57,787 nucleotides of DNA, from NCBI GenBank assembly GCA_963807635.1, contig CAWEDJ010000102.1, forward strand, positions 1-57,787. The letters are read 5' to 3'. The notes under the pieces are model-generated. The model was not told where the DNA came from, ran no database searches, and was given only the letters and a program-made list of their open reading frames with translations. A program made the position numbers and the translations under genes. Positions within the stretch are counted from its first letter, which is position 1; each line of letters opens with the position of its first letter. The DNA is from an uncultured cyanobacterium. GTDB lineage: Bacteria > Cyanobacteriota > Cyanobacteriia > Cyanobacteriales > Microcystaceae. This document shows positions 13,881-38,804 of the stretch, piece after piece.

Positions 13881-13892
13881 ATAGATTGAAAT

Positions 13893-15530: not shown

Positions 15531-16320
15531 TGATGGAAACCCAGCTTAATATTGAGCGTGAAATTTGTCGGTTACAAAGTACCAAAATTGTTGAAGTTGA
15601 ACAGTTACATTCTCTTCATAAATGGCTTGACAACCAGCGTATCTGCCGACAGCCAGGAAGAATTTTAGGGGAATCCCGTACAGGAAAAAGTTGTGGAGTC
15701 AAGAGTTATGCACAAGAACATCCCCCTTTTCAAGTGGCAGGTTCCCATCCCATAATTCCAGTGCTTGTAATACAAGTCCCTCAAGATTGCGGAGCAAAGG
15801 AACTTTATACCCTTATTACTGAAGCATTGAAATTCAAAGTAACAAAAGGTTCAGTAGCAGACCTTCGCCGTCGAGTCTATAAGTATCTTCGGGACTGCAA
15901 AGTAGAGATGTTAATTATTGATGAGGCTGATCGGATCATGGCAAAGTTTTTTGCAGATGTGAGAGATTTTTCTGATCATCTCAATATTGCAATTGTGTTG
16001 GTGGGGACTGATCGCCTTGATGCAGTAATCAATCGAGATGAGCAAGTTAAAAATTGCTTTTACTCATATTTTCGTATGGGGGTGTTGAATCCTGTGCAGT
16101 TTGAGAAGACCGTAGTGATTTGGGAGCAACAAATACTAAGGTTGCCCATTCCATCGAATTTAACGGCCACGGCGACATTGAAGTTATTAAGAGAGAAAAC
16201 GAGGGGCTATATCGGGATTTTAGACATGATTCTTAGGCATTCAGCGATCCGGCCCTTCAGAAAGGAGCGTTGAAAATTGATCTAGATACCCTGAAAGAAG
16301 TCATGGCGGGGTTTGGCTAA
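15530..16320 (+). CDS. tnsC: AAA+ ATPase TnsC (1-bp frameshift near 16252, true stop at 16320)
   Basis: Walker A GESRTGKS, Walker B LIIDEAD, VLVGTDRL. Adding one G restores the typical C-terminus ...IRALQKGALKIDLDTLKEVMAGFG*, whose TAA overlaps the tniQ ATG. Confidence 0.93.
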
Positions 16321-16820
16321 TGGAAACGATTTTACAACCTTGGATTTATCGTTTAGCCCCCTATTCAGGAGAGAGTCTCAGCCACTATCTGGGACGGTTT
16401 AGGGAGGCGAATTGCTTATCTGTCAGCAGATTGGCGGAGGAAGCGAGATTGGGGAGTGTTTTTATCAAACGCCTAGAACACTTTCGGCATAATCCATTCC
16501 CCACTGCCTCCCAACTAGAAAAACTGGCTATTTTTACGGAAATCAGTCCAGAGTTACTCATGATGATGCTACCTGAGAAGGGGGTAGGAATGAAATTGGA
16601 GCCTATTCGCCTCTGTGCCGCTTGTTATGCTGACCAGTCTTACCACCGTCTGGAATGGCAATATAAGACCACTGAGGGGTGTGAAAAACATCGTTTACGC
16701 TTGTTGTCAGAGTGCCCAAAATGCAAGGCCCACTTTCCTATCCCGTCTCTGTGGCACGGAAAATGCCAAAGGTGTGGATTGAGGTTTAGCGATATGCAGT
16801 TTTTTCAGAAGTATTATTGA
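16320..16820 (+). CDS. tniQ: TniQ (short, V-K type)
   Basis: PYSGESLSHYLGRFR, HNPFP, IRLCAACY, zinc-finger CEKH/CPKC/CQRC. Confidence 0.95.
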   Translation: METILQPWIYRLAPYSGESLSHYLGRFREANCLSVSRLAEEARLGSVFIKRLEHFRHNPFPTASQLEKLAIFTEISPELLMMMLPEKGVGMKLEPIRLCAACYADQSYHRLEWQYKTTEGCEKHRLRLLSECPKCKAHFPIPSLWHGKCQRCGLRFSDMQFFQKYY

Positions 16821-16844
16821 ATTGATTCGGCATCATAATTAATT

Positions 16845-18266
16845 ATGATCTTCTCTTATATCAACCCAAAATATACACTTAGACTGATGAATAAAGGCGA
16901 CAGACAAAAACAAGGCCATGTATATATTTTGATTAATCAAAGCTATGCGGGGCTACTCAAAATTGGCATGACAACTCGCAATCCAGAAGAGCGAGCGAAA
17001 GAACTATCTCGACCAACAGGAATTGCTACTCCTTTTTTTGTTGCCTATCAGCAAGAAGTATCAAATTGTGAGTTAGTAGAGCAAGAAATTCATGCCAATT
17101 TATCGAACTTTCGATATAGAAACAATAGAGAGTTTTTTGAGATGCCTCTCCATGAAGCTGTCAGAATGATACCTCAAATTATTGACAAAATTGAAATTCG
17201 GCTAAGGATTAAAGGCGCATTGCCTATTTTAGACTCTTGCTACTGCTATGAAGACCAAAAATATTTTATCCAGAATTTTGTTTTATCTGCAAGAAAATAT
17301 ATTGCAGACATCGATATCATTCATTCACTCTCTATTAAACTGATTAAACTTTATTTTAATCACAGTTTTATTTTGGAAGATTTGAGAGTAAGATCAGTAA
17401 GATCTCAGGAACCTTACTTTATCAATACCTCAGAAACTTACTTGATCCCTCCTTCCGATATTACTTTTCCATCTTTAGGTAGGGCAACTCAGGAATGGGT
17501 CAATGTTTGTAAAGAAATCCCCTTTGAAAATATTAATTTGGATGGCGAGAAGAAAGCTCTAGAATTAATAGAAAAAGCCATTGCATCAATCACAGATGAT
17601 GTGAGTGAATTCGATTATGCAGATAGAATAATAGGTGTATCGATTGAAGATATATTAACCAGAGGAAATAGGGAAAACTTAATTGACTTACTTAATTTTA
17701 TAATTTATTTCATTAGTTATTATTTCACAAAAATAGATACAGATCACCATAATTTTATCTTTTATCAAAATCCAGAGATTGAAGTTTTGTTATCTAATAT
17801 AGCAAATGAAAATAAAAATATTGAAGCTACTTACTTAGCTTTATTTTGTCTATATGCGCTTTATGGAATAAAGTGGAATTATTTTCAAAATGAGAATTAT
17901 GAAAAAAGATTTCTTGATTTTATGACTTGGGATGAATCGGATGCAAAGAGAGAAACTATTGCTACTTATGCTACACGTTTTTTTTCGATTCTCAGTCAGT
18001 TTGATCAACAAAGTATTGATGATATTTTTAGGATTGTTTATATTGGAAAATATGAGAGATGTGCAAGTATTGATGATGATTTGTTGGTAGACATCTTAAA
18101 TGAAATGAGTCATGTCAATGAATATACAGGAGAGAATGATGAAATGATTGGTTTTCAGTGGTGTCATGACGAAGGAACAAAGGCGATGATTGTAGACGTA
18201 CTTGTCAAACTGAAAAATTATTTCGATGAGAACACCTTGGCTATATACCTAAAATCCTTGCTTTAA
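16845..18266 (+). CDS. GIY-YIG (T5orf172-like) nuclease-domain protein with unrecognised helical C-terminus
   Basis: GHVYILIN..LLKIGMTTRNPEERAKELS..TG..TPF..EIH..L..REFF. AT-rich. Start may be 16887. Confidence 0.8.
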   Translation: MIFSYINPKYTLRLMNKGDRQKQGHVYILINQSYAGLLKIGMTTRNPEERAKELSRPTGIATPFFVAYQQEVSNCELVEQEIHANLSNFRYRNNREFFEMPLHEAVRMIPQIIDKIEIRLRIKGALPILDSCYCYEDQKYFIQNFVLSARKYIADIDIIHSLSIKLIKLYFNHSFILEDLRVRSVRSQEPYFINTSETYLIPPSDITFPSLGRATQEWVNVCKEIPFENINLDGEKKALELIEKAIASITDDVSEFDYADRIIGVSIEDILTRGNRENLIDLLNFIIYFISYYFTKIDTDHHNFIFYQNPEIEVLLSNIANENKNIEATYLALFCLYALYGIKWNYFQNENYEKRFLDFMTWDESDAKRETIATYATRFFSILSQFDQQSIDDIFRIVYIGKYERCASIDDDLLVDILNEMSHVNEYTGENDEMIGFQWCHDEGTKAMIVDVLVKLKNYFDENTLAIYLKSLL

Positions 18267-18353
18267 TGCCTTGAGAATACGCGATAAGCTTATTCTCATC
18301 TATGCTTGATGGCTGTTTCGTGATGTTGGAGGAGTCTATCAAATGCGTAATTC

Positions 18354-18484
18354 CAGCAATTCTCATTATGGAATTTTGAGATAAATTTATTGAGAATGGT
18401 CGCAATAACGATCTCCAAAAGCCTCATTCTTTCGTTGTGAGATCATTGCATAGTTCTGTCTCGTGGTCAAAATGAGAATTGCTG
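18354..18484. mobile_element. 131-bp MITE with 14-bp perfect TIRs and 9-bp TSD
   Basis: CAGCAATTCTCATT...AATGAGAATTGCTG, flanked on both sides by GCGTAATTC (18345-18353, 18485-18493). Confidence 0.85.
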
Positions 18485-18573
18485 GCGTAATTCAGATACA
18501 ATGTAGCTCATAATAAGCAACTAAACTAAGCACATTCAACATTATAAAAACAATACACGCTGAGGGAGGTGCT

Positions 18574-19635
18574 ATGTTAGACACCGTAAACGACTCTAGC
18601 GTCACTATTTCGATAGACACGCTTTATGCTCGCCTTAGAAATATCGGCTTAACTCGCTCTACTGTCCGAAATCTGTTGTTACCAGATTGGTGGTGTGATG
18701 AATTTGAGCAACGAGAGGGAACCTTTTTCGAGGCGGCGGCCTATATCGCCCGTCGGACTGGCCTGGATTTTTCTGCTCTCATTCATGAGGATCAGGAGCT
18801 TTCTTTTCCTTCGGATTCGGGTCTTTGTTTCAAAAAGCGACAAGGGACAGAGGAGAAGGACTTGGCGATCGCCAGTGGTGTAGCGGAACAAGTGGCTAAG
18901 AGCGTCGCTTTTGCCTGTGCAAGGGAATATCAGTCAGTAGCGGGTTGGAATGCTGAGGCAGTTCGCAGGGAAATTCTATCGAAGCATCAATGGGTGAATC
19001 TGGACGGTTTACTTGATTTTTGTTGGAATCATGGCTTGCCTGTCGTTCACTTGACTAATCTCCCGTCTGGGAATGGACTAAAGAAATTTGACGGTGTGGC
19101 AGGGGTCTTTGAGGGTCGTCCTGTGATCGCTACTGGCAAAAATCATAAATCCTCTGCTTGGATGGCCTTTATTGTTGCCCATGAGCTAGGGCACATTATC
19201 TCTGGCCATGTTCAGGAAGGAGAATGTATTGTTGATGAAAATATCGAGCTTGATGGGGAGACAGATCCGCAGGAAAAAGAGGCTGATCGGTTCGCTGTTG
19301 AATTGATTTATGGGAAAAACAACGTGAATTATTTACAGTCAGGTTATTTAACTGCAAATAAATTAGTAAATTATGCACTTTCTCAGGCAGAAAAAGATGT
19401 TGTCAATCCAGCTTCGATTGTTTTGAACCATGCGTGGCACAAGAAGCAAACAGTTATGACGAAAAAGCAGCAGGCAATTGCCTGGGGTATTTCTCAAAAT
19501 GCCATCAAGGAATTAGAAGGTGAATTTCTTGCCGCACCAGAGATCATAAATCGTCGTCTAGCAGATAATTTAGACTGGGATCGTTTAAGTGACGATAACT
19601 GTGATTTTTTAGAGAGGATGGCCGAAACTGAGTGA
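18574..19635 (+). CDS. ImmA/IrrE family zinc metallopeptidase
   Basis: AFIVAHELGHI (HExxH) plus downstream EKEADRFA. GGAGG RBS. Confidence 0.87.
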   Translation: MLDTVNDSSVTISIDTLYARLRNIGLTRSTVRNLLLPDWWCDEFEQREGTFFEAAAYIARRTGLDFSALIHEDQELSFPSDSGLCFKKRQGTEEKDLAIASGVAEQVAKSVAFACAREYQSVAGWNAEAVRREILSKHQWVNLDGLLDFCWNHGLPVVHLTNLPSGNGLKKFDGVAGVFEGRPVIATGKNHKSSAWMAFIVAHELGHIISGHVQEGECIVDENIELDGETDPQEKEADRFAVELIYGKNNVNYLQSGYLTANKLVNYALSQAEKDVVNPASIVLNHAWHKKQTVMTKKQQAIAWGISQNAIKELEGEFLAAPEIINRRLADNLDWDRLSDDNCDFLERMAETE

Positions 19636-20321
19636 TTGCCTACATTGACAATGACATTGTTCTCAAGCTGTGTGCTTGTGATCTGTTTTGGGAAGCGATC
19701 GCGGCTCTGGGTTTAGAAAAAGAAAATTTGAGGGTATTGGACAGCGCTCAGTTCGTTTTTAGGGGAAATAGAAAGGTTAAACGGCAATATAATGAGACGG
19801 TGAGAGAAAGGGCGATCGCGGTGGTTCGTTCTTTAGAGACGGTCAGAGCCAATGCTTCTCATCCTCTGTTGGGTTTGAGTTTGCCTGATGTGGATGAGGG
19901 GGAGTTACTCTTGATTGGAAGGGCGATCGCCGAGCCTGCTTTTTATTTGGTGTCAGGAGATAAACGTTGTTTTCGGGCATTAGGGAGACATGGAGAGTTA
20001 GCGCAGGCAAGGGAAAAGTTATGTGGACGGGTGATCTGTTTGGAGCAGGTTATCCGCTTTTTAATTGAGGATCAGGGCTTTGAGACTATTCGGGATAAGG
20101 TTGTGCCTGCCTGTGAGTGTGACACCGCTTTGAAGACAATTTTTGGTTCTGGTTCTCACGCGGAAGAAAATCATTGTCTGGCTACGTTGTCTAGTTATTT
20201 GGAGGAGCTAGAACAGGATTGTCCAGAATTATTGGCTCCCTTGGACAAATGGAACAAGATCAGAAGTCCAGTGGAATTTGTAACTGACGAATGGATTGAA
20301 CGGCTTTATATGCCTGATTAA
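19632..20321 (+). CDS. PIN-like domain protein (putative toxin)
   Basis: PIN-type acidic pattern: AYIDNDIV, VDEGE, LVSGDKR. GTGA overlap with the upstream peptidase stop. Confidence 0.65.
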   Translation: MIAYIDNDIVLKLCACDLFWEAIAALGLEKENLRVLDSAQFVFRGNRKVKRQYNETVRERAIAVVRSLETVRANASHPLLGLSLPDVDEGELLLIGRAIAEPAFYLVSGDKRCFRALGRHGELAQAREKLCGRVICLEQVIRFLIEDQGFETIRDKVVPACECDTALKTIFGSGSHAEENHCLATLSSYLEELEQDCPELLAPLDKWNKIRSPVEFVTDEWIERLYMPD

Positions 20322-22191
20322 TGTCAGTTGGTTTTTCTGGGTTTTTATACTTTAGGATTCCTTCTGCAACTAAGGGGGCAAGAAATTGTTTACGAAGATA
20401 ATCTGGGTTCTTGTTAAGGAGCTGCCCTAATGTCTCTTTCGTCAAATAATCCTTGGAACACAGTTGAATAATGATATTTCGCATGATATTAGGCTGAACA
20501 CGGGCTTTTTGGCTGATTTCTACACATTGTTTTTGAAGTTCTGGTTCTATTTCCGAGCTTGGGTTATAAGTTTCCGAGTTCGGGCTATAACTCCCTGAGC
20601 TTGGGTCATAACTCCCTGAGCTTGGGTCATAACTCCCTGAGCTTGGGTCATAACTCCCTGAGCTTGGGTCATAATTCTCTAAGGTGGGAGTTATCGGATC
20701 AGAGGGTTCTTCATTTACTAAGGAATACCTGGTGCCTCGGCAGCGTCCTTTCTGTACGAGCCAACCTTTATCTACTAGGTTTTTGAGGCGATCGCCAATA
20801 TCTCTGGGATGTTCAGTTCTGTAGCGTTGAATATCTAGGTTGCTGACTTCACCGAAATTATGAGTCAAAGCCAAGATCATTCTATCCAGTTCACTTAGCT
20901 GAGTATAATTTTCACCGACAACTGCTTTCAGATCGGTTTCAATATATTCAGGAATCAAGCTAATCATCGGAAGAACAACGTTTGTCATATCCAGATCAAG
21001 TTTTTCTGAAACCAGAGGTTTTAGCCATTGTTGTTCATTCCATGCTCTTAAGATTTTTCCAAATCCTGAGCCAGCTTTCTCTCCTAAACCGAGCATTTGA
21101 AACATTTTTTGTAGGTTTGGGTTGCGAGGATCGCTTATTCCGCCCTGATAAAGTGCCTCTAAGGAAATACGGAGGCGACCTGGATCGAAGAAGCCATAGC
21201 GATCTGGCAATTTTGCAATCACTATGGGACGGGTTGATTGATGATCCGCATGAATCAGCGTATTAACAAGGGCTTCTCTCAGGGCTTCATGGACATGGGT
21301 TTCTCCTTTGCGGACTGCATCTTTTTCTAATTGAAAAGGCACATCTAAGTCTTTGACCAAACGACCATAGACTAAGTAGTAAAAGTTAAAGAGGTTTGGT
21401 TCCCATTTGCCATCCAGGGTTACGCGATATGTCCAGCGTTCTTCAGGATCATTCGATAGTCTTTCTTGATAATCCAATTGGTAATAAGGAAAGACTTCTA
21501 ATATGCTACGTTCCATGCCAAACATGAGTAAACCTGCGACGGTTAACCCCTCTTTTCCTGAATTGCGTTCTGTTTTCCAACCCCCTAGTTTTTGCAGAAG
21601 ATTTTGATCATCAAGAGCTAACCAGGGATGATCGGGTTCTCGGTTACTAAAGCGTTGACGAAAGGTTTTTATCGTTTCTGGATCGAGGGTCTTCCAGCCC
21701 GTAATCTTCTAGGAGTTGAAAATCCTGGGGATCGTCACTGGCATCCCTTAACATTTGTCGAACTTCTGTTTCTGTACAGTTGTAATCCCCTTCATGGTTT
21801 CGTTTATAAGTCCCTGTCATAGGATTGTTATTGATATAAACAGGGCGTTGTTCCCTCCTGGCTCGCGGAACATGAATTATCAGAATCGAATGCTCTCCCG
21901 GGTACAGATTTCTATATCGGAATTAGAGCAAATATTTGTACTTAATTTTCGGCGATTGTTATGAACGTCCCAAAATTGTTTTTGGAGATGTTGGGGATTA
22001 GAGACTCCTACAATCTCGAATCTGCCTCGTTTTTCCTTAACACCTAAGACGATATAGCCACCATCGGTATTGGCAAAAGAGGAGACGGTTTCCCAAATAT
22101 CATTGGATAATTCCCCTTCAGACAATTTGAATTCATAGTCTTGATCTTCGCCGATGTCTATTTGTTGTAGTAGTTGATCTCTCTCCATCAT
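20260..22191 (-). CDS. Schlafen/AlbA_2 plus HATPase_c_4 (RecG C-terminal-like) plus wHTH protein, broken by frameshifts
   Basis: N-terminus EDQDYEFK..ETVSSFANTDGGYIVLGV, C-terminal part ALREALVNTLIHAD, PRNP.L..MF..LGLGEKAGSG. The linking region is in other frames. Confidence 0.8.
20551..20674. repeat. 21-bp coding tandem repeat (4 exact plus 2 degenerate units)
   Basis: CTCCCTGAGCTTGGGTCATAA x4 at 20591-20674, encoding YDPSSGS repeats on the minus strand. Confidence 0.93.
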
Positions 22192-22241
22192 TGTTTCTCG
22201 GTTACGTTATACTTCTGTGTTGGTTCGTGATTGGAATTGCC

Positions 22242-23438
22242 TTAGAGTTCGCCTTTAAAGGCTTTGTCGAGGATGGAGGGGAGCAGGGCATCAAGTTCGG
22301 CGGCGGTTTCTGTTTGGAGGTGTTTAAGGGCATCTATTTTGTCTTGGAGATCGTCGAGATAGACAACGATATGGTGTTGTTCTTCAACTGAAGGAACTGG
22401 AATTGGCAATTTTCGTAGGTCATTTAATGAAATATTCGGTCTTGCTGTCTCTACCTTACCTTCATGAATAATATTTTGAGCGTTTCTACTGAGTAAAAAA
22501 TACATTAGGTAATGGCTATTTATTTTTGAGTAATCAGGAGAAATCACTGCGACAGCTTGATTTATATTTGCGTCCTCAAATTCTTCTACGACTACACAGG
22601 CACGACCAATTGATGCACCAACTAAGTTAATTAGAACATCACCATTTGTTAATTGTGAGCGACTTAATTTCTGGTGAAAGTCCAAAGGAATATATGTTTT
22701 TGAGCTTAAATCTAGCTTTCCCCATAAGACGTTTTCACTTCTAATGAAAAGTACGCCTGATTCTTGATAACTAAAGCCCTGCCAACTAGGAGATTCACCT
22801 TTGGTAATTCGTTGAGAAAGAGTATTTAAAGGAGATTTAGGATATTGTTTGAAAATAGTTTGACTATAGTTTTGTCTTAAGTAAGATATTTCATCAAGAC
22901 TTTGTTTTCGTAAGCCCCTTGCTTCGGCAATCGACGTTGCCAATTTCTCGATCCGCGCCACAATTCGCCGTTGTTCTTCTATAGATGGAAGAGGGATTTC
23001 TAGGTTTAAAAACTTATCTTCTTTGAGACGTACACGATTAGTCGTACCTTCACTAGCTACTTTACAAAGATCAATAAAATCAGGTGTTTTACTTAGCCAT
23101 CCAAGATATTGAGGAAGTAATTTTGCAGGATTGGTATTAAAAACAGGAAACTCATTAGTAACGATTGATCCGTCGCAATCAGAAGAAATAACACCAGATG
23201 CTCCGTGTCGTGCATCAATTCGAGAAATAATGAATTGTTGAGGACGAACGACTAACATCTTTTTTGCAGATATTTCTGAGCCTTTGACTAGACCCCGTTC
23301 TACTATTCCTTGACCCCACATACGCACAGTTAATAACCGATAAGTTATGTCTGGATCAGGTTCAATCCATTCTTCCGATTTAGACAGAATGTGCTGAAGA
23401 GAAATTTTGGGATAGGTCGTTATTTCCTGCCATGCCAT
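22242..23438 (-). CDS. hsdS: Type I R-M specificity subunit
   Basis: Two TRDs, each followed by IPLPSIEEQRRIV or IPVPSVEEQHHIV. Ends SILDKAFKGEL. Confidence 0.93.
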   Translation of the reverse strand: MAWQEITTYPKISLQHILSKSEEWIEPDPDITYRLLTVRMWGQGIVERGLVKGSEISAKKMLVVRPQQFIISRIDARHGASGVISSDCDGSIVTNEFPVFNTNPAKLLPQYLGWLSKTPDFIDLCKVASEGTTNRVRLKEDKFLNLEIPLPSIEEQRRIVARIEKLATSIAEARGLRKQSLDEISYLRQNYSQTIFKQYPKSPLNTLSQRITKGESPSWQGFSYQESGVLFIRSENVLWGKLDLSSKTYIPLDFHQKLSRSQLTNGDVLINLVGASIGRACVVVEEFEDANINQAVAVISPDYSKINSHYLMYFLLSRNAQNIIHEGKVETARPNISLNDLRKLPIPVPSVEEQHHIVVYLDDLQDKIDALKHLQTETAAELDALLPSILDKAFKGEL

Positions 23439-25012
23439 TATTTTTGTTTCTCCTTAATTGCAGTTTTAATATTACCTAAAATCTCTAAAATTTGCTGTTC
23501 TTTTTGCCAAATATCAGCAATTAACTCCTCTGGAGGCTTATGAACCAACACTTCCAAACCATTGGGATTTTTAATATCTAGATTAGCCGAAAGTAACGTA
23601 TCACCATCGTATTTGAGAATATCCGAGACAGACACCTTCCAAGCCCGATCATTTTCCTCTCGGTTATGCCACCACGCCAAACAATCACTAAACTCCTCGG
23701 ACTGTATCGGCTTCTTTTTCGTGTAATTCTTACGGCCTTCAGGTAGCGGTTGCTCATAAAACCAGATTTCTTTCGTCGGGCCAGACTGATCAAAAAACAA
23801 AATATTCGTCGAAATGCCCGTGTAAGGCGCAAACACCCCATTGGGTAAACGGACAACCGTGTGCAAATTAAACTCCTTGATCAACTTCTCCTTAATACGA
23901 GCGCAGACCCCATCCCCAAATAACGTCCCATTGGGAACTACCACCGCCGCCCGTCCCGCCTTGCCTTTATTTTGCTCAGGACGCTTCAACAACCGCATAA
24001 TCAACTGGAGAAAAAGTAAAGCCGTCTCAGCTGTCTGTAAATCCTTGGGAAAACCCGCCTTTACCGAAACCTCCTCTTCTCCCCCAAACGGTGGATTGGT
24101 CAGAATCACATCAACCCGATCCTTTAACCCCAACTCACTTAACTTCACCGTCAACGAATTACCGTAATTAATCTGGGGACGTTCTAACCCATGCAATAAC
24201 AAATTCATCTGAGCCAGTAGATAGGGTAACGACTTAGCTTCCTGTCCGTAAAGCGTCATCCATTGCAAAATCTCCCTATTTTGGATAGTATTCGCCTGTT
24301 TTGCTAAATAATCGTAAGCCTCCACTAGAAAGCCACCTGTCCCACAGGCAGGATCAAGTAACGTTTCCCCCAACTGAGGAGCCGTAGCCTTCACTATGAA
24401 CTCCACCAAGGGCCGAGGCGTATAAAATTCCCCCGAATCTCCCGCCGCGTCACGCAATTCTCGCAACATGGACTCATACAAATGGCTAAGAGTATGAATC
24501 TCTTCCGATGACCCAAAATTAATACCATTTACCTTATCAACCACATCGCGGAGCAGATAACCCGACTCCATGCGGTTTGTTATCCCCCGAAAAATATTGG
24601 CAATAATTTCCTGTCGTCCCTTGCCATCAGGAGATTGTAAATTTCGTAGATAGGCAAACAGACCTAAACCCCTAGTTCCGTAGGGTCTAGCCGCCTCATC
24701 TTGATTAATAAAAGCGATTAAATTTCGCCCCGTCCACACCTTAGAATCTGTTCCCCAATCCCGCCACCGATAGGGCGCATCAATAATCGGCTGATAGGGT
24801 TTACCTTCCAATAAAGCCGCCTCTTCCTGTACCCGTTCCAGATCGTCTAAAAACTTGAGAAATAGAATCCAAGTTAACAGAGGTAAGCGGTCTAAATCGC
24901 CATTTAAGCCCTTATCCTTCCGCATAATGTCGCGGGTGGACTTGATAATTGATCTCAATTGCTGGGTTGGGGTAACGGACTGTTCTGCGATCGCTTTTTT
25001 CGTTCTGGCCAT
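23438..25012 (-). CDS. hsdM: Type I R-M N6-adenine methyltransferase
   Basis: GEFYTPR, DPACGTGGFL, ILTNPPFGG. Confidence 0.95.
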   Translation of the reverse strand: MARTKKAIAEQSVTPTQQLRSIIKSTRDIMRKDKGLNGDLDRLPLLTWILFLKFLDDLERVQEEAALLEGKPYQPIIDAPYRWRDWGTDSKVWTGRNLIAFINQDEAARPYGTRGLGLFAYLRNLQSPDGKGRQEIIANIFRGITNRMESGYLLRDVVDKVNGINFGSSEEIHTLSHLYESMLRELRDAAGDSGEFYTPRPLVEFIVKATAPQLGETLLDPACGTGGFLVEAYDYLAKQANTIQNREILQWMTLYGQEAKSLPYLLAQMNLLLHGLERPQINYGNSLTVKLSELGLKDRVDVILTNPPFGGEEEVSVKAGFPKDLQTAETALLFLQLIMRLLKRPEQNKGKAGRAAVVVPNGTLFGDGVCARIKEKLIKEFNLHTVVRLPNGVFAPYTGISTNILFFDQSGPTKEIWFYEQPLPEGRKNYTKKKPIQSEEFSDCLAWWHNREENDRAWKVSVSDILKYDGDTLLSANLDIKNPNGLEVLVHKPPEELIADIWQKEQQILEILGNIKTAIKEKQK

Positions 25013-25034
25013 AGGAAAAATTCAAAAGTTTATA

Positions 25035-27893
25035 TTATGCCGCGTATAGATAATCCTGTAACTGATCCACCGCTTTCTTAAGGCGATCGGCTCCGTTAAA
25101 GAATTTAATAATCTCACTGATATTACCCCGTTGGGAAATGGGAGGAATTTTCAGGACATCGGGGATTTTTAATTGGGTCGGCCCATAATCTGTATACTTA
25201 TCTAACAGATCATCCAGAATAGCTCGTGCATCTCCCCCATAAGCATCAAAGAAATCCGTCTGATTTTTTCGCAACCGTTCCGCCCGTTCTTTACGTGTCA
25301 ATAAAGTAGCATTAAACGCTACATGACAGAGTAAATCAAAGGGATCAACCTCTGGCAACCCTAATGTCGCTCCCAAGGCGATCGCACTAATCCCCCGTTC
25401 ATCCAACTGAGCAATCAGCCATTCTCGTTGCTCTGTATTGCGCCAGGAAGCCCTTAAAGCCTCCGTATCGGGATAAATCTTACGCACCTCATCCCCTGTG
25501 TAATCAGCATACTCTACACAGCGCAAGCGATTACCATGGGCATCCAACTCATAGACCAATTCGTGGATAATTTCTACCGTTCCCCCATCTACATAATACT
25601 TGCGGGGTTCCGTTGGTTCGGGGGTCGGATGAAGTCCCCTGGACGACGAGGGGGAGAAACCTCTTCTGCTGTCGGATCAGTGTCCATTTCATCTTGAATC
25701 ACTTCTGTGTCAATTACCTTACCGTCATCATCAATGGTGGCTTCTTCAATAAAAGCAGGATCGCCATTAAAATCTGGGTCAGCAAAATGACTGGTAGCTG
25801 TGCCAGTGTAATCTAATATATTGAAAAATAGCTTGCCGTATTCTTCACGCACCCTAGTTCCTCGTCCCACGACTTGCTTAAATTCGGCACGGGAATTGAT
25901 CACTCGTGCTAGGACAATATTTTTTGTCGTTGGTGCATCTACCCCCGTTGTCAGCATTTGCGAAGTCGTTAGAATCACTGGGGTATCTGTTTCTACGTCC
26001 TGAAACTGCTCTAAATGCCCCTTACCCACGTCTCCCTCATCGGCAGTCACCCGACACACATAATTGGGGTAACTCTTCACCAAATCAGCATTAAGATTAT
26101 TTAATGCCTTTTTCATTTCCAGAGCATGATCCTGATCCACACAGAACACTAAGGTTTTGGCAAAACGGTCGTTTTTTTTCATGAAGTCCGTAACGTGTTG
26201 GGCGATCGCCTCCGTCCTCGCTAGTAAGGCCGACCACCCGATCAAAATCTTTGGTTTGATATTCGTCATCAGGAATTTCTCGTCCATAACGATCTAATTC
26301 CCCTGGAGTCGGTCGCCAACCTGCGGCATCCGCACTGGTTACAATCCGATGAACTCGATAGGGGGATAAAAAGCCATCTTCAATGCCCTGACGTAAAGAA
26401 TAGGTATAGAGGGGATTACCAAAATATTCATAGGTATCGCGGGATTCCTCCTGTAACGGGGTTGCTGTTAATCCCAATTGAATCGCAGGTTCAAAATAGG
26501 TCAAAATCTCCCGCCAGGAACTTTGTTTCCGTGCCGATCCGCGATGACATTCATCCACAATAATCAGATCAAAAAAGTCCGATGGAAATTCCTTATAAAG
26601 TCCTGAGCGACGTTCATCTTCCGCGATCGCTTGATAGATAGCAAAGTAAATATCCCGACTTTGTACCGCATTGCCCCCTTGAATCTTATAAATCGCATCT
26701 CCAAACGGAGCATAATCCCGATTCATCGGATCATCCACCAGCACATTGCGATCAGCCAAATACAAGATTTTGGGATGGCGAGGAATCCCCTGTAGGTTCC
26801 ATTGACTTGTCCATAGCTTCCAACAGATCTGAAAAGCCGTTGTGGTTTTACCTGTCCCCGTTGCCATCGTTAAGAGTAATCGCTTTTTTCCTTGAAGAAT
26901 GGCTTGTACAGTGCGATTAATAGCAATTTCTTGGTAGTAGCGCGGCTTTTTCCCACTCTGGAGATTATAGGGAGTTAATAATTTATTGATCTGATCAAGA
27001 CCTAACCCTTGGCTCTGACAATACCTCGCCCACAATTCCTGCGGTGTGGGAAAACTGCTCAACTCTAGTTCCCGCCCTGTAGTGAAGTCAAATTCAATAA
27101 TTCCTAAGCCATTGGTCGAGTAAGCAAATTTTAAGTCCAAGATTTCCGCATATTCTTTGGCCTGCTGTAATCCTTGATCAGGTGACTTGTAATTGGGCTT
27201 GGCCTCCACAACGGCAATCGGGAAGTCTCGACGATATTGAAGGATATAGTCTGCCCTTTTTTGTTTTCCGCGTTTAACTTTGTTACCCAGGGTAATAATA
27301 CGCCCATCGGTAAAAGTGCGCTGTTCCGTTATGGAGTAGGGATTCTGCTCCCACCCTGCTTGCCGAAGTTTGGGCAAAATATATTCTCTACAGGTGTCCG
27401 CTTCATTCATAGTGGTTAAATCAATAGCAGCAGGCTTGTATTGTTTACCTTTCCTCCGTGGCCTGTTGCCCAGCCTCTCTTCGATCTCTGCCTGCAAAAG
27501 ATCGAGGCTTAGTGAGGTAACACTAATGAGACCATCTGCAATATCGCTGTACAGATCATTTGAAGAAAATACAACAATTACAAGCTCTTCATCCCTAGTA
27601 TTCCACCTTAATAGATATCGCTTACCATTCTCTGGCAAATTATATTGAGGATCAATATCCCGAAGTTGCTTAAGGGTTTGTCCTGCGGATTGAAAACTAT
27701 AGCCTCGCTCTAGTAAATAATGAACGATGGCAAGATCAATCAAGTCTTCTCGACTGTAATAAACACTATGACCAGTCCCCGAAGCATCAATAGTAGGCAC
27801 AACAATTTCTTGCTTTCGCCAATATTGGGCTTGGCGAACCGTACAACCGACAATCTCTGCTGCCCGTTTTGTCGTAAAAAAAGGCTCTCCCAT
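25035..27893 (-). CDS. hsdR: CvkR (MerR-type CAST repressor) fused to type I restriction subunit HsdR (EcoEI-like), two apparent frameshifts near 26235 and 25620
   Basis: aa 1-~142 form a MerR HTH (FFTTKRAAEIVGCTVRQAQYWR..VVP..GTGHSVYYS). From M162 (27410): NEADT, ADY..VVEAK, MATGTGKT, DECHRGSA, LTATP, TTGVDAP, QVVGRGTR, DPFDLLCHVAF. Confidence 0.88.
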
Positions 27894-27957
27894 TACTTTT
27901 GCTATCTACTCTTTAATTAGATTCAACAATTATACAGAAAAATATTTGTAATTCTAG

Positions 27958-27987
27958 TTGTCATTTATAAAACACATATAGTATTAT
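27958..27987 (+). promoter_or_regulatory. Putative cas12k promoter with candidate CvkR operator
   Basis: TTGTCA-N18-TATTAT. AACACATATAGTATT (27971-27985) matches 8 of the 10 defined positions of AnnACATnATGTnnT. Confidence 0.55.
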
Positions 27988-28007
27988 AGATTTATATTGT
28001 AAGGTCT

Positions 28008-29834
28008 ATGCCAATGAATATTATCTCTATCCAATGCCGTTTAGTCGCTAGTGAGCCAGATCGCCAGCAACTCTGGCAGTTAATGGCATCTAGTCACACG
28101 CCATTGGTTAATACTCTGTTAGATCAGGTAGCTCAACATCCAGAGTTTTTAGAGTGGAAAACGAAAGGTTGTCTCCCAGCCCAAAAATTAGAAGAAATCG
28201 TCAAACAAACACGGCAGCAAGAGCCATTTGCGGGTTTACCTAGCCGATGGATTACCTCTGCACAACGACAGGTTGCCGAGATATACAAATCATGGCTTAA
28301 GCGTCAAGAGCAACTTCTGCGTAAACTATCTGGACAACAGAACTGGTTGGCCATGCTTCGATCTGACGAAGAACTAGCCCAGACTAGTGGATTAACCCTC
28401 GAAGAACTCAAAGAAAAAGCTAGAGAACTTTTAGAACAGGACTGTTCGGACTGGTTTGCTTTCCACCGTGAAGCCGAGGATGATTTGATTCGGAACGCGA
28501 TCGCCTATCTCCTTAAAAATGGTCGTCGCATTCCTAAACATCCAGAGAAGCCCGAAAAATTGGCAAAAAAACGCCGCGCAGTGGAGATCAGAATCGAAAG
28601 ATTGCAGATACAACTGGCGGCGAAATCTCCCAGTGGAAGGGATATGGCAAATGATCATTACAAAAATGCACTCGTGACAGGGGTTAGTAAGCTGTTTGAA
28701 ACCGAAGAAGACTTCAAACAATGGCAGGGACAAGTTACTGCTAATATCAAAAATTTGCCCTTTCCCGTTGAATACACCAGTAATGGCGATTTAAGTTGGT
28801 CTTTAGATACTCAAAAGCGATTATGCGTAAAGTTTAATGGGCTGGGAAAACTAACGTTTAAAATTTATTGCGATCGCCAACAACTTCACCTCTTTCAGCG
28901 TTTTTACGAAGATCAACTGATTTTCAAGCAAAATAAAGCAGATCACTCCCAAGCTCTATTTATGTTGCGATCAGCGACCCTTCTCTGGAAAGAAAGAAAT
29001 AGTAAGGGTGAGCCTTGGCAGGCCAATTATCTTTATCTTCATTGCTGTATAGATACATTGCTTTGGTCACAAGAAGGGACAGCATTAATCCGTCAACAGA
29101 AAGCCGAAAAAACTCAGCAGATGTTGTTGAAGATGAAAGAAAAGCCCGAATTAACCCCATCCCAACAGCAGTATCTAAACAGACAAAAATCACTTTTGAG
29201 AGGTTTAGAAGGTGAATATCCTCGACCTGTACATCGTTTGTATGAAGGTCATGGCCATCTTATTGTCGGTGTTAGTCTTGACATAGAGCAATTAGCATCT
29301 GTGGCGTTAATAGACATACAAAGGGGAGAAATTTTAAGATCTCGTTCTCTAAAACAGTTATTGGGCGAAGACTATGAACTTGTTCATCGATTTCGATACG
29401 AAAAACGTCATAATGCCCATCACAATAAAGTATCTCAACAGAGGGGAAAGCAAACTTCCTCCCAAGAAGCTCAACTTGCTACACACATTGACCGATTACT
29501 TGCAAAAGCGATTATTTCTTTTGCCCAAGAAAATTTGGCTGGGAGCGTTGCTCTACCGAAAATACGGGACATTCGTGAAGTTGTGCAATCACAAATTCAG
29601 GCAAGAGCGGAAGAACGTATTCCTGATAGTCAAGAACTCCAGCGACAGTATGCAAAGCAATATCGTATTAATGCCCATCGTTGGAGTTACGGAAGGCTAC
29701 TTGATGCTATCCGTAACCGAGCTAATAAACGAGGCTTGGTCGTGGAGGAAGGGATTCATTCCCTTAATAATACAGCAATAGAACAGGCTAAGGGAGTTGC
29801 CTTAAGTGCCTACGCCCTTCGGAATATTGCCTAA
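28008..29834 (+). CDS. cas12k: Type V-K effector Cas12k (nuclease-inactive)
   Basis: ISIQCRLVASE..RQQLWQLMA..TPLVN, LPFP, KIYCDRQQLHLFQRF, inactivated RuvC-I IVGVSL, AKQYRINAHRWSYGRL. Confidence 0.96.
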   Translation: MPMNIISIQCRLVASEPDRQQLWQLMASSHTPLVNTLLDQVAQHPEFLEWKTKGCLPAQKLEEIVKQTRQQEPFAGLPSRWITSAQRQVAEIYKSWLKRQEQLLRKLSGQQNWLAMLRSDEELAQTSGLTLEELKEKARELLEQDCSDWFAFHREAEDDLIRNAIAYLLKNGRRIPKHPEKPEKLAKKRRAVEIRIERLQIQLAAKSPSGRDMANDHYKNALVTGVSKLFETEEDFKQWQGQVTANIKNLPFPVEYTSNGDLSWSLDTQKRLCVKFNGLGKLTFKIYCDRQQLHLFQRFYEDQLIFKQNKADHSQALFMLRSATLLWKERNSKGEPWQANYLYLHCCIDTLLWSQEGTALIRQQKAEKTQQMLLKMKEKPELTPSQQQYLNRQKSLLRGLEGEYPRPVHRLYEGHGHLIVGVSLDIEQLASVALIDIQRGEILRSRSLKQLLGEDYELVHRFRYEKRHNAHHNKVSQQRGKQTSSQEAQLATHIDRLLAKAIISFAQENLAGSVALPKIRDIREVVQSQIQARAEERIPDSQELQRQYAKQYRINAHRWSYGRLLDAIRNRANKRGLVVEEGIHSLNNTAIEQAKGVALSAYALRNIA

Positions 29835-29882
29835 GCTGTTCCGATCTATCTAAAGATTTGCACCTTGACAATTAAATATGGA

Positions 29883-30101
29883 AACAACAGTGCCGCAGTT
29901 TATGTTCTTCGAGCCTCTGGACTGCGATAAGTATGGGGTAGTTTAACCGTCGGTAAACGGTCTTGCTTTCTGCCCCTAGCAACTGCCCACCCCGATGCTG
30001 CCGACCGATAAGGAAGGGAATTAGGCGCACCCCCAGCAAGAGGATGTGGGTTTACTACAGTGGTGGTTGCTAAATCACCCCTGATCAAGGGGGAATCCAC
30101 C
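29883..30101 (+). ncRNA. Type V-K tracrRNA
   Basis: Shares blocks with the ShCAST tracrRNA (GCCGCA, GCCTCTG, TCTTGCTTTCTG, GATGCTG, CCCAGCAA, ATCACCCC.GATCAAGGGGGAA). Anti-repeat segments CTTTC and AATCCAC. T-rich 3' end. Confidence 0.9.
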
Positions 30102-30349
30102 TTTTTCTTTTTTTGCGCGTCTCTATGGCTGTAAAAGCCTCTTTGTTACAATGCCGCTCTGTATCTGGAAGACATTGAAAATGAACAGGAGACTCCCGCG
30201 CAACAAAGGCAAAGTATATACAGCTTGAGTTTAAGCTTATTCTGGGATGATTAAATTCTCCATTGCTGAAACGAAGATGACTAACTGAGCAAAGTGTCGC
30301 GCAAACCACTCTTGAATTCGTGGTGCAGTTAGGCTTCTGAGGGCAAGGG

Positions 30350-30672
30350 GTTTCAATGTCCATCCCAGTTAGGGGGGGATTGAAAGATACTCTACCGCTT
30401 CCATACCGAGGAAGTCCCGCGTTTCAATGTCCATCCCAGTTAGGGGGGGATTGAAAGTGGCACGTTGAAGCCCAGGTACGTTGGCGTAAACGTTTCAATG
30501 TCCATCCCAGTTAGGGGGGGATTGAAAGGATGCAAGCTTGGCGAGAATTTTCATCTCAACCTGTTTCAATGTCCATCCCAGTTAGGGGTGGGTTAAAAGC
30601 TCGACTTTATCGAAGCCTGCCTCGCAAGTTATGCGGTTTCAATGTCCATCCCAGTTGGGGGTGGGTTAAAAG
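30350..30672 (+). CRISPR. CRISPR array: 5 x 37-bp repeats, 4 spacers (34, 34, 34, 36 nt)
   Basis: GTTTCAATGTCCATCCCAGTTAGGGGGGGATTGAAAG at 30350, 30421 and 30492. Variants ending GTGGGTTAAAAG at 30563 and 30636. Confidence 0.97.
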
Positions 30673-30720
30673 ACATTATATTATTGTGTCAATGACTCAA
30701 GCAATACTAAAGTTAGTCTG

Positions 30721-30749
30721 GTGGATTGAAAGGTAAAACCTTAGCCTTC
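30721..30749 (+). CRISPR. Delocalised homing crRNA: truncated repeat plus 17-nt tRNA-Gly spacer
   Basis: GTGGATTGAAAG (30721-30732) then GTAAAACCTTAGCCTTC (30733-30749), a 17/17 match to tRNA-Gly at 32836-32852 (minus strand) with a GTG PAM. Confidence 0.95.
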
Positions 30750-30767
30750 ATGATTATTTGATCATGG

Positions 30768-30880
30768 GGCGTTGCTGAATCAAAGTATGAATGTGAATTT
30801 TTCACATAGCCCAAAGTCAGTTTGAGTCTAGGTTTTAAAAATCCCATAAAAGAAGATTTATATTTAAAATCAGCAACGCC
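30768..30880 (+). mobile_element. 113-bp MITE-like element, copy 1
   Basis: Terminal IRs GGCGTTGCTGA...TCAGCAACGCC. 106/113 identical to the inverted copy at 32567-32679. No TSD seen. Confidence 0.8.
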
Positions 30881-31004
30881 CTGTCTTTTTTCAATGCTTG
30901 CTGGTTCTCTTCAGATTTTTTTTCAATTACTTAATGATGCACTGATGCTCTTTTGAGGCTTACGCCTTTTCTTTGTCATCGATATATTCACTACTCAATT
31001 GCAT

Positions 31005-31039
31005 AATGCACTCTCTGAAGAGAGCGGTGCATTCTTTTT
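31005..31039 (+). terminator. Hairpin plus T-run upstream of the recombinase gene
   Basis: AATGCAC-TCTCT-GA-AGAGA-GCG-GTGCATT followed by CTTTTT. Confidence 0.4.
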
Positions 31040-31075
31040 CGGTTCGTTTTATAGACTTTACTGTTTTTACTACCT

Positions 31076-32503
31076 ATGAATACAAAGCAACTTAATTCCG
31101 TTGTAGGATACGCCAGAATTTCTACTGAGCGTCATTTAGCTGATGCGGATGTTCTTCTCTCTACTCAGCAGTGTCTTAAACAGTATGGTGTTTCTTCTGA
31201 TCTCTTCTTTTGGGATATGGAGTCTGGCTTTTCTGATAAACGAAGAGGCTATGACGATATTTTGGCTCTTATTGCTCAAGGTAATATCCAAAAGGTTGTT
31301 GTTTATTGCTTCGATTATTTTCGTGGGAATACTTTGCAGTGGCAAGATTTTTTTGCTATTCTCTCCCATCAGAATATTGAGGTTGTTTTGGTCGGTGAAG
31401 GACGTTTTCTCCATATCGATGGAGTGGGCAATGTTCTAGCGGATACGATTCATCAATCTGTCCTGGCTAAGCAACGCCATATCAATCGCCAGAATTCAGA
31501 GCGAGGGCATGAGAAACGCCGACAACAGCAAAAGCCTTTCGTTGTTCCTTTTGGCTATGTTCTCAATGAGAATGCTGAGGTGGCTATTAATCTAGCTCTC
31601 TATAAGGATTCTCAAAAGAGCTATTATGCGATCGCCAGGGAACTGATTGATTGTTTTCTCGACACTGAGTCGGTTAGCCAAACGCTGGCTGCTCTTTGTG
31701 ATCTCTATGGATACAAGCGAGTTGGAAATCGTAATCTGGACTTCCCCCGTGATCCCAAGGCTTTAAAGAACTGGTTACTCAGTCCTTTTTTACGAGGGAC
31801 GCTCGTTTTTTTTCCTAAAGATCCCACACGTCGTATTGAGCATCCTCTTCATCATCCAGCTATTATCACTGAGAAAGAGGCTCTCCAAATTCATCTTATT
31901 ATGGAACGTCGCAAGATTATCAAGAAGACTGATACCTTAGCCAATCCTCTTATTGATTTAATTTTTTGTGCTGGCTGTGGTTCTCCTATGAAGGTTTCCC
32001 AGTCTAAAGGCAGCTCGAACTCTGAGTATCACTATTACCTGACCTGCAAGGGGGCTTACCCTAAAGTGGGACACCCCAAAGTCTGCGATCGCCGTTCTAG
32101 TTATGGTTTAGAAATTAGTGATGTTATCAGCTTTGTGATTGGAGCTTTGTCTCGTGCCTCGGAGCGCATCGAGCAGTGCCTACCCCCTGATAGTCTTGAT
32201 AAAGTGCTAGATACTCCTGAAATACTGGCACTCAAATCTAAGATTGAAAAGATAGAGGCTCTCAATTTCCCTGAAATGATTCTTGTTATCAATCAATTAA
32301 AGACCGAATTGGAGGGACTTATTGCCCAAAAGTTGCGAGAACACAACGAAAATAACTTGGCTTTCTTGGATTTACAGTCCATCCTTCATCGCCCCAATAT
32401 TTGGCGTTCTATCTTGCCTGAAGAGTTGAGGACTATCTGTCCTTTGCTTGTCAAACGAGTTATTTGTGATGAGGGGCAAGTCGCCATTGAACTTTTAGTT
32501 TAA
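31076..32503 (+). CDS. Large serine recombinase (XisF-like: resolvase, recombinase and Zn-ribbon domains)
   Basis: VVGYARIST (catalytic Ser), D.ESG....R, PFGY, HPAIIT, CAGCGSPM..YYLTC..C, coiled coil. Confidence 0.85.
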   Translation: MNTKQLNSVVGYARISTERHLADADVLLSTQQCLKQYGVSSDLFFWDMESGFSDKRRGYDDILALIAQGNIQKVVVYCFDYFRGNTLQWQDFFAILSHQNIEVVLVGEGRFLHIDGVGNVLADTIHQSVLAKQRHINRQNSERGHEKRRQQQKPFVVPFGYVLNENAEVAINLALYKDSQKSYYAIARELIDCFLDTESVSQTLAALCDLYGYKRVGNRNLDFPRDPKALKNWLLSPFLRGTLVFFPKDPTRRIEHPLHHPAIITEKEALQIHLIMERRKIIKKTDTLANPLIDLIFCAGCGSPMKVSQSKGSSNSEYHYYLTCKGAYPKVGHPKVCDRRSSYGLEISDVISFVIGALSRASERIEQCLPPDSLDKVLDTPEILALKSKIEKIEALNFPEMILVINQLKTELEGLIAQKLREHNENNLAFLDLQSILHRPNIWRSILPEELRTICPLLVKRVICDEGQVAIELLV

Positions 32504-32513
32504 GAAAAAAGAA

Positions 32514-32543
32514 TACTGCATCCATTTGGTGCAGTTTTTTTTT
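32514..32543 (+). terminator. Intrinsic terminator after the recombinase gene
   Basis: ACTGCA-TCCATTTGG-TGCAGT followed by a T run. Confidence 0.7.
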
Positions 32544-32566
32544 GCAAAAAAATCAATACTATTAGG

Positions 32567-32679
32567 GGTGTTGCTGATTTTAAATATGAATCTTCTTTTA
32601 TGGAATTTTAAAAACCTAGACTCAAACTGACTTTGGGCTATGTGCAAAATTCACATTCATATCTTGATTCAGCAACGCC
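32567..32679 (-). mobile_element. 113-bp MITE-like element, copy 2 (inverted relative to copy 1)
   Basis: Reverse complement aligns ungapped to 30768-30880 with 7 mismatches. Confidence 0.8.
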
Positions 32680-32790
32680 TAATTTGTTAATGATGACCCA
32701 AAAGAAACGACATTTAATGTGTTATCGCGACATTAGGTTGTTAAGACGACAGCAATTTGTTAATAATGACAAATAATTAGTTAATGTACA
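32680..32790 (-). repeat. CAST left end (tRNA/PAM-proximal) with four contiguous TnsB sites and a truncated fifth
   Basis: Minus strand reads TGTACA-TTAACTAATTATTTGTC, TTAACAAATTGCTGTC, TTAACAACCTAATGTC, ATAACACATTAAATGTC, then TTAACAAATTA cut off by the MITE. Confidence 0.9.
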
Positions 32791-32798
32791 GAAAAAAA

Positions 32799-32869
32799 AG
32801 CGGGCGGCGAGAATCGAACTCGCATCATTAGCTTGGAAGGCTAAGGTTTTACCACTAAACTACGCCCGC
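32799..32869 (-). tRNA. tRNA-Gly (anticodon TCC), CAST homing target
   Basis: GCGGGCG/CGCCCGC acceptor stem, anticodon arm TTAGC-CT-TCC-AA-GCTAA, GTTCGATT T-loop. Confidence 0.96.
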
Positions 32870-37354: not shown

Positions 37355-37475
37355 TAAGTAGATGGGTCTTAAAAGTTATAAGATCCCCCCGTTCTACGGA
37401 CACCCACCTTATCAAGGGGGGCAGGGGGGATCGAGTGCAAAACCTATTGTCAGTTTAATTGTAACCAGCTACTTA
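37355..37475 (+). repeat. ~120-bp MITE/REP-like element, copy A
   Basis: TAAGTAG...CTACTTA ends and internal CCTTATCAAGGGGGGCAGGGGGGATC. Inverted homolog at 38692-38804. Confidence 0.7.
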
Positions 37476-37489
37476 GCCGTTAAAAATTG

Positions 37490-38630
37490 TCAATTCGCCT
37501 TAATTGTTTGAGTTTCCTGAACCGTCGAAACCATTGCGGCCATTAATTGTTCGGGAGAAACGCTAAAGGGTAAACGGTGAATATCCGAATCGGGCTGACA
37601 GGTTGTCTCGGCGGCGTGTTGCAATTCGGCCAGGGTGATTTGACTTAAACCCAGATCATTCAAACTTTTCGGTAAACCAATTTCGCCATAAAATTTGAGC
37701 AATTGTTGACGAGAAGTGAGGGCCAATTGATTTCCTGCAATCATTTCCTCTAGGCGTAACTGCACTAAAATTCCGTAGGCAACTTTTTCACCATGTAAAA
37801 TATGATGGGCGGCGGGAATATGGGTCAAACCATTATGGACGGCATGGGCCGCAACGGTTCGGCAATTTGCGCCACCGAGTCCTCCGATCACTCCTGCAGA
37901 GTAAAACGGTTGCATCGACCACTTCTTTCCAGGTTTCGCAGCCTGGTTCTTGCAATGCGGCGACGGATTTTTGCAACAGTAAATCCCGTAATACCCTGGC
38001 TTGTTGGACGGCCGCAATGGTTAAGGTATCGCTAGAATGACCACTACTGACGGAAGCTTCGTACCATTTGGCGATCGCGTCTCCGATACCTGCAACGAGG
38101 GTGCGCTGGGGAGCTAATTGGATCAGGTCATAGTCGAGAATGAGGAGATCGGGACAGTGGGGAAGGGGAACATCGTATTGAAAGGCCCCTGCATCACTAT
38201 AAACATTCGATAATCCTGTCCAGGCTGCACAGGTCGCGCCAGAGGTGGGAATGGTGACGATGGGTAATTGGCAACGGTAGGCGACTAATTTGGCTGTGTC
38301 GAGGGCCTTACCGCCACCGACCCCAATAATAAAATCAGCCTGATGTTGCTGGACGGCGGTTTGTAATTTTGCGAGAGAATTTTCTGAACAATCGGGAGTA
38401 TAACATTCTTCTTCGGCTGTCAATTCTTGGGACTGAAAAACCCTTTCTAAGGGAGATTTAACGACAGCTAAGGTTTGTTTTCCGCCAATAACGAGGGGAC
38501 GTTTCCCAAAAGAGGCGATCGCATTTCCTGAAGAAGCCAGGCTTCCGCGCAGAACTTGGGTCGGCGCAATACTGAGTACGGACAATTGGGAAGCAACTTT
38601 TGAAGGATGTTTAGCAATTTTTGACGGCAT
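37490..38630 (-). CDS. gldA: Glycerol dehydrogenase / iron-containing alcohol dehydrogenase (frameshift near 37900)
   Basis: GVGGGKALDTAK, PTSGATCA, AGIGDA, AHAVHNGLT, LHGEKVAYG. Confidence 0.85.
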
Positions 38631-38691
38631 CAGTCCAAATTTCCAAAAAAGATAATAATTTTCAAACAGATTAACAGAAAATTCCCCTAAA

Positions 38692-38804
38692 TGGGTAGAT
38701 AGTTGTAATTAAATTGAGGATGGATTGATCCCCCCTGCCCCCCTTGATAAGGGGGGTGTCCGTAGGACGGGGGGATCTGATAAATTTTAAGTCTCATCTA
38801 CTTA
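38692..38804 (-). repeat. ~113-bp MITE/REP-like element, copy B
   Basis: GATCCCCCCTGCCCCCCTTGATAAGG core and CATCTACTTA end, reverse-complementary to copy A. Confidence 0.7.

Follow-up and report, generated by a model that had tools for sequence, protein, structure and literature searches.

A recombinase gene bracketed by sister IS1-type MITEs in the left end of a cyanobacterial type V-K CAST

In this study we analysed a window of 57,787 nt, which is contig C102 of the genome of an uncultured cyanobacterium of the Microcystaceae (GCA_963807635.1, here G000) and in which a large serine recombinase gene lies between two inverted repeats of 113 bp at the left end of a type V-K CAST (Table 1). 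The repeats are copies of an IS1-family MITE with IS1-type ends, belonging to a family that makes 8-bp target duplications; the two copies are sisters, the boundaries of the CAST can be seen directly, and the enclosed recombinase has lost two catalytic arginines. We consider the arrangement, with a probability of roughly 0.55, to be a one-off product of IS1-type MITE activity: the sister MITEs would have captured an XisF-like gene and brought it once into the left end of the CAST. The only unusual part of the locus is likely to be the recombinase itself, which is conserved and probably disabled. A first-pass annotation had proposed an invertible switch inside the CAST end, with the segment between the repeats being flipped either by RecA or by the enclosed enzyme.

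Table 1. Coordinates of the features discussed, in positions of the 57,787-nt window
Feature	Position	Strand	Remarks
5-bp duplication around the CAST	13541-13545 and 32791-32795		
Type V-K CAST	13546-32790		tnsB, tnsC, tniQ, cas12k, array, Tn7-like ends, homing spacer, duplication
CAST right end, tnsB, tnsC, tniQ	13546-16820	+	
cas12k	28008-29834	+	NF038191, 724 bits
CRISPR array	30350-30672	+	five repeats
Repeat fragment and homing spacer	30723-30749	+	fragment 30723-30732, then 17-nt spacer 30733-30749
IS1-family MITE, copy 1	30768-30880	+	113 bp
Leader of recombinase gene	30881-31075	+	195 nt, starts CTGTC; single copy in G000; common to X7 record 26 from 30882
Weak sigma-70-like site in leader	30979-31007		promoter matches not above the chance level
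XisF-like large serine recombinase gene, P0001	31076-32503	+	475 aa
Intrinsic-terminator-like hairpin with T tail	32515-32543	+	
IS1-family MITE, copy 2	32567-32679	-	inverted sister of copy 1
CAST left end	32680-32790	-	four whole TnsB sites
Truncated fifth TnsB site	32680-32690	-	distal sites present in related ends, e.g. L105, L114, L116
tRNA-Gly(TCC)	32799-32869	-	CAST homing target

The 113-bp MITE and its CAST setting

The inverted 113-bp arms described in the first-pass annotation are borne out: the two copies are identical at 106 of 113 positions, their longest identical run measures 34 nt (30803-30836 in copy 1 and 32611-32644 in copy 2), and each arm has its own terminal inverted repeats. 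What had been missed is the dispersal of the element. With copy 1 as query we obtained 12 matches in G000 and matches in 25 of the 61 genomes searched. The annotation had itself named many dispersed copies as an observation that would speak against its reading, and the genome-wide count which it had suggested gives 8 full-length copies in G000. The first 25 nt of copy 1 agree at 24 positions with the terminal repeat of a 751-bp IS1 element in a related locus (L042), whose two ORFs match the IS1 transposase model NF033558. An IS1 with the same end is also present on contig C44 of G000 (10665-12661), where it is interrupted by another transposase pair, and pieces of IS1 lie at contig ends; a whole IS1 copy with the end of the MITE was not seen in the G000 assembly. 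Being short, non-coding and dispersed, with terminal inverted repeats, ends common to autonomous IS1 and a family duplication of 8-9 bp, the element is an IS1-family MITE. MITEs of other sizes with the same terminal repeat occur in G000 as well: C24 23676-23824 (149 bp), C42 48774-48920 (147 bp) and C50 22306-22428 (123 bp).

Five alleles are common to copies 1 and 2, and none of them occurs in the six further 113-nt copies of G000 used for comparison (a 112-nt copy on C29 was left out); hence the two copies are sisters. Dating a crossover between them by their seven differences had to be rejected since, whichever phase is assumed, derived changes lie to the left and to the right of the core.

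The duplication habit of the family was surveyed across 11 genomes in 63 copies, which were drawn from the copy-1 matches and comprise 40 fetched stretches, 14 loci and G000. A target duplication of 8-9 bp is found in 23 of these copies and none in 40; in the complete genome G014 it is present in 10 of 13 copies, four of them with one common target. For 14 copies both flanks match G000; an 8-bp overlap is present at each of the two empty sites that could be resolved, one copy shows a 2.9-kb gap, and a 0-bp join was seen in none. The resolvable sites are L132 and the left flank of L133 taken together with the right flank of L131, a flank swap between two copies which, in a draft genome, may be a misassembly. 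From these empty sites, the gap and the lack of a 0-bp join it follows that the duplication-free copies are rearranged and not blunt insertions. The two window copies have no target duplication in either orientation, in agreement with the caveat of the annotation that none was visible: their four flanks pair in no combination, and no pairing was found with the flanks of the 40 duplication-free copies.

The transposon around the cassette has cas12k together with tnsB, tnsC and tniQ, Tn7-like ends, a 5-bp duplication and a tRNA homing spacer, and is thus a type V-K CAST. The spacer matches 32836-32852 inside the tRNA-Gly gene exactly, and in the relative G004 the empty site joins 13545 to 32791. 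Directly outside the right end there is a degenerate Tn7-like end with several TGTC-ending sites (13460-13541), which is also found in G003 and at the empty site of G004, so that an older element had used the same tRNA-Gly target. Two further Tn7-like ends are present in G000 (C96 50-92 and C40 17834-17887). The cargo between 16845 and 25012 is defence-like and comprises a T5orf172/MUG113 protein, an IrrE-like peptidase with a downstream ORF, AlbA_2 and ATPase ORFs and type I M and S subunits; a 21-nt tandem repeat (20534-20680) lies within the ORF 20260-21525. It is followed by a type I restriction subunit R of the EcoAI family (25035-27893, minus strand), split over three ORFs, the first of which opens with a MerR domain. 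In V-K CASTs a divergent regulator usually stands upstream of cas12k. Since the MerR domain occupies this place, the first ORF is possibly a regulator-HsdR fusion.

The recombinase cassette has the homing spacer on one side and the left end on the other. In the related CAST of G005 (contig C94; L097 1000-2552 and L182 24-1361) an IS701-like transposase gene is found between the homing repeat and the array, which indicates that the zone beside the left end collects insertions. Further along the window a second dispersed repeat (78 nt, 37 matches in G000) forms an inverted pair around a glycerol-dehydrogenase-like gene at 37355-38804, which is split into two overlapping ORFs.

The split TnsB site and the history of the cassette

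As the first-pass annotation had noted, copy 2 cuts a TnsB site: the 11-nt half-site next to it matches the intact site at 32748-32763 in its first 10 nt, and the letters CTGTC do lie directly inside copy 1, at 30881-30885. If the stretch 30768-32679 is removed as a whole, the repeat fragment comes to stand 146 nt from the left end. Among the 29 related loci examined, 12 ends have such a fragment, and in 11 of them its distance to the end is 95-199 nt. The restored spacing falls inside this range, which argues that the MITEs mark the edges of foreign DNA.

In the history that we prefer, the MITE pair would have arisen through replicative intramolecular transposition, with an IS1 transposase acting in trans; such transposition would bracket a segment with inverted copies whose inner flanks differ. 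The bracketed gene would then have reached the left end, with the fifth TnsB site as its point of entry, either as a composite unit or via recombination through the MITE arms; the outer duplication and what remained of site 5 would have been lost through an adjacent deletion, an event common in this family. CTGTC would be native leader sequence and its fit to site 5 would be due to chance. Neither the four outer TnsB sites nor the homing spacer is damaged, so the recombinase gene would likely travel with the CAST as cargo.

Contigs from public sequencing runs bear on this history. In the independent run X7, record 26 (2108 nt) aligns to 30882-32541 with 68 other letters, the cassette being 96% identical, and continues for 425 nt past 30882 into DNA unlike that of the window; a joint to the MITE or to the left end is not listed for this record. 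Only contigs were available from these runs, and the fact that X7 does not cover cas12k, array or left end was not counted as evidence. The X7 flank, together with the 8-bp habit of the family, the lack of any restored duplication and the normal spacing once 1.9 kb is removed, makes import likelier than inversion in place. Several observations count against import. An outer-flank duplication around the whole MITE-bracketed unit was not found, so that an extra deletion must be assumed. In run X5, record 22 contains the MITE, the left end and the tRNA with a third inner flank, which is neither that of the window nor, judged from depth, the inverted one, and a joint of 30882 to 32570 listed for this run, with 31 nt on its short side, is unexplained. 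The 425 nt of X7 could be another, diverged Tn7-like end, less than 88% alike, which would make TGTC a TnsB site, and the flank swaps in draft genomes may be misassembly.

The strongest competitor, which we regard as unlikely although it has about the next best claim, is a single inversion in place. On this view the gene stood next to the left end in reverse orientation beforehand, site 5 was split by a MITE, and after the arrival of a second copy MITE transposition or RecA flipped 1.7 kb once. The rejoined site, on which the annotation had built its proposal, is indeed identical to site 2 at 15 of 16 positions and has the usual length of the short class. The chance of the fit is 0.0006 for the exact 5-mer at one flank and about 0.016 if two offsets and three flanks are allowed for TGTC; as statistics the match is weak. 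None of 122 other MITE flanks starts with xTGTC, and CTGTCTTT makes a poor insertion target, at the 42nd percentile as against 82-90 for the other three flanks. The low chance of the fit, the empty count of flanks and the poor target all favour inversion. Inverted sister copies are moreover the signature of the trans pathway according to excerpts of PMC4471558, and IS1 is described as replicative in those of PMC12428005. The same pathway, however, leaves inverted 8-bp repeats, and two ordinary insertions leave direct ones, whereas the four flanks here do not pair; two insertions, both lacking a duplication, are required of a family that duplicates 8 bp; the 146-nt spacing on removal would imply that each edge of an earlier insertion had been hit by a MITE; and the X7 contig runs on into other DNA. 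An inversion somewhere in the history of the cassette is plausible from its inverted sister copies, but the specific rejoining of site 5 is doubtful.

It is still less probable that the gene entered by another route and that two MITEs inserted independently near its ends, with later deletions removing their duplications. The family is dispersed and 40 of its 63 surveyed copies have no duplication; the 78-nt repeat brackets a gene in inverted orientation in the same way, and an insertion sequence sits in the same zone of the related G005 CAST. Against this stand the five private alleles common to both copies and the density of the element, since with 8 copies in 4 Mb two independent events 1.7 kb apart are unlikely. 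That the orientation or the flanks are an artefact of assembly at the 113-bp repeat is very improbable: flanks are swapped between identical copies in a draft relative and the contigs of run X1 break inside the 34-bp core, but all four MITE junctions are present in these contigs (records 3, 4, 6 and 7) and neither phase across the core restores a duplication.

The recombinase P0001 and its relatives

The annotation of the enclosed gene as a large serine recombinase with its own terminator agrees with our analysis: Resolvase, Recombinase and zinc-ribbon domains are present, and the stem-loop with T tail lies downstream of the gene. The predicted structure (mean pLDDT 89.8) contains a coiled coil, and its best structural matches are serine integrases. 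P0001 matches the XisF model NF041201 over its full length with 258.8 bits, below the cut-off of 375; its relatives P0002 and P0003 reach 276 and 179 bits. A promoter scan gave 6 sites where 4.9 were expected.

The first-pass annotation overlooked that two catalytic arginines are lost beside the kept serine. The catalytic set in resolvase numbering is Tyr6, Arg8, Ser10, Asp36, Arg68 and Arg71. P0001 keeps Tyr12, Arg14, Ser16, Asp47 and Arg56, and in comparison with gamma-delta resolvase the equivalents of Tyr6, Arg8, Ser10 and Asp36 are kept, whereas Arg68 is replaced by Tyr81 and Arg71 by Gly84. Among 142 proteins of 400-560 aa (P0001 and 141 relatives, out of 153), the Arg68 equivalent is present in 138 of the 141 relatives and the Arg71 equivalent in 129. 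Mutants of Tn3 resolvase in Arg68 or Arg71 showed no detectable recombination while binding remained, as stated in excerpts of PMC2794168. P0001 is therefore predicted to be catalytically dead, a prediction drawn from a small resolvase and not from its own family; Arg83, which is also present in P0002, might replace one of the lost arginines.

These residues bear on the proposal of a reversible switch, in which flipping of the cassette by the recombinase, or by RecA if it acts often enough to be of use, changes read-through to the left end or to the homing crRNA. Relatives at about 30% identity include two enzymes which we matched by coordinates to Table 2 of PMC11249958: L083 is CnXisH3, a proposed inversion enzyme with a 17-nt site, and L077 is CnXisB1, a proposed excision enzyme with a 15-nt site. 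Ser16 is kept. The loss of both arginines, however, speaks against action by the enclosed enzyme, and the arms are a dispersed 113-bp MITE, while the sites described for the relatives in excerpts of that paper measure 5-22 nt. No other inverted pair at the cassette ends appears among the 25 longest inverted repeats listed, and the seven differences between the copies persist on both sides of the core. As leader and terminator move together with the gene, a flip would also have little effect. We find no support for the switch, neither as an arrangement of the CAST end nor as the work of its own recombinase, and consider it highly improbable. If it were true, it would be a new way of controlling a CRISPR-guided transposon, but our observations point to a MITE rearrangement of the ordinary kind.

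P0001, P0002 and P0003 form one branch with an SH-aLRT of 100 in a quick tree of 45 of the 142 proteins. All three lack both arginines, and P0003 lacks the serine too. Identity between P0001 and P0003 is 29% in the catalytic domain, 54% in the recombinase domain and 74% in the zinc domain. For 55 pairs of relatives with intact motifs the means in the same order are 46, 36 and 43%, and only 5 of these pairs have the catalytic domain as the less conserved one. Between P0001 and P0002 identity is even across the domains (67, 68 and 79%). A further protein, P0154, differs from P0001 at 26 of 475 residues and has lost the same two arginines. X7 record 26 has the same length as the contig given for P0154. 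If it is taken as the contig of this protein and 50-60 of its 68 differences are assumed to lie in the gene, a rough dN/dS of 0.2-0.3 results, computed from difference counts and not from the DNA letters. From this value and the domain conservation it follows that the gene is under selection, even though its product can probably not carry out recombination. The branch, which consists of three clusters only, is thus a candidate clade of pseudo-recombinases, in which the catalytic domain would decay while the DNA-binding domains stay conserved. Among the papers listed in our literature searches, titles and opening lines of abstracts contain no description of such a clade or of a MITE-flanked recombinase in a CAST end.

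We tentatively suggest, as an idea with perhaps more against it than for it, that P0001, P0154, P0002 and P0003 are XisF-like integrases without catalysis which are selected for DNA binding. As defence cargo of a CAST they might occupy the att sites used by related active integrases, so that integration or excision is blocked, or they might act as site-specific repressors. PADLOC returned no match to P0001.

The cassette is a single copy in G000, and in 400 other genomes of the order a search by DNA gave one 37-nt match and nothing else. A P0001-type recombinase in a CAST was not found by protein in 61 genomes, beyond distant XisF-like matches, and none was confirmed among metagenome contigs; none of 42 related loci has a tns gene, a cas12k gene or a MITE pair near the recombinase. 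A 21-nt left-end pattern gave five loci in metagenome contigs, all of them rejected as chance matches in unrelated coding DNA, and a degenerate left-end pattern gave one locus in viral contigs, which was without the recombinase. Among the 15 plasmid records listed out of 136 only tRNA matches were seen, and a distant XisF is present in 4 plasmids. Relatives in named genomes belong mostly to Calothrix and Rivularia, with about 30% identity. XisF-like recombinases that are 31-34% identical to P0001 were also noted on viral contigs of 44-118 kb (L126-L129, with intact motifs in L126 and L128), which indicates that the heterocyst excisase family occurs on phage-like elements too.

Comparison with known systems and implications

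The Hin, Gin and Pin switches use short dedicated sites and an intact small invertase. The window resembles them in that a serine recombinase gene lies inside inverted repeats; it differs in that the repeats are a dispersed MITE and the enzyme is without two catalytic arginines. With the XisF-type recombinases of heterocystous cyanobacteria (NF041201; CnXisH3 and CnXisB1 of Calothrix NIES-4101, as far as described in excerpts of PMC11249958) P0001 shares a full-length model match, the same three domains, 29-31% identity and a gene near the boundary of an element. Unlike them it reaches 259 of 375 bits and has lost the Asp-Arg-x-x-Arg motif; no gene is interrupted, and the flanks are MITEs and not short recognition repeats.

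Replicative intramolecular transposition of IS26 and IS1 makes IS-bracketed inversions and composite transposons, according to excerpts of PMC4471558 and PMC12428005. Like those products, the cassette shows inverted sister copies around a segment without abutting duplications, and a target length of 8 bp is given there for an IS1-family element. Unlike them, it has non-autonomous 113-bp MITEs as arms, the expected inverted 8-bp repeats are absent, and the location is the left end of a CAST. This CAST is in turn like the type V-K CAST with a delocalized homing crRNA, as presented in excerpts of PMC11656645, in its tnsB, tnsC, tniQ and cas12k genes, array, 17-nt tRNA-homing spacer, 5-bp duplication and defence cargo. 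It departs from that element by the 1.9 kb between homing spacer and left end and by its cut innermost TnsB site.

In conclusion, if the cassette was imported as we propose, two MITEs are able to place cargo between homing crRNA and left end of a CAST at the cost of the innermost TnsB site, and the cut site offers a natural experiment on the length of V-K left end that is required. If our tentative view of the P0001 clade is true, a conserved non-catalytic large serine recombinase would be a natural inhibitor of, or a DNA-binding scaffold for, an enzyme class that is widely used in genome engineering.
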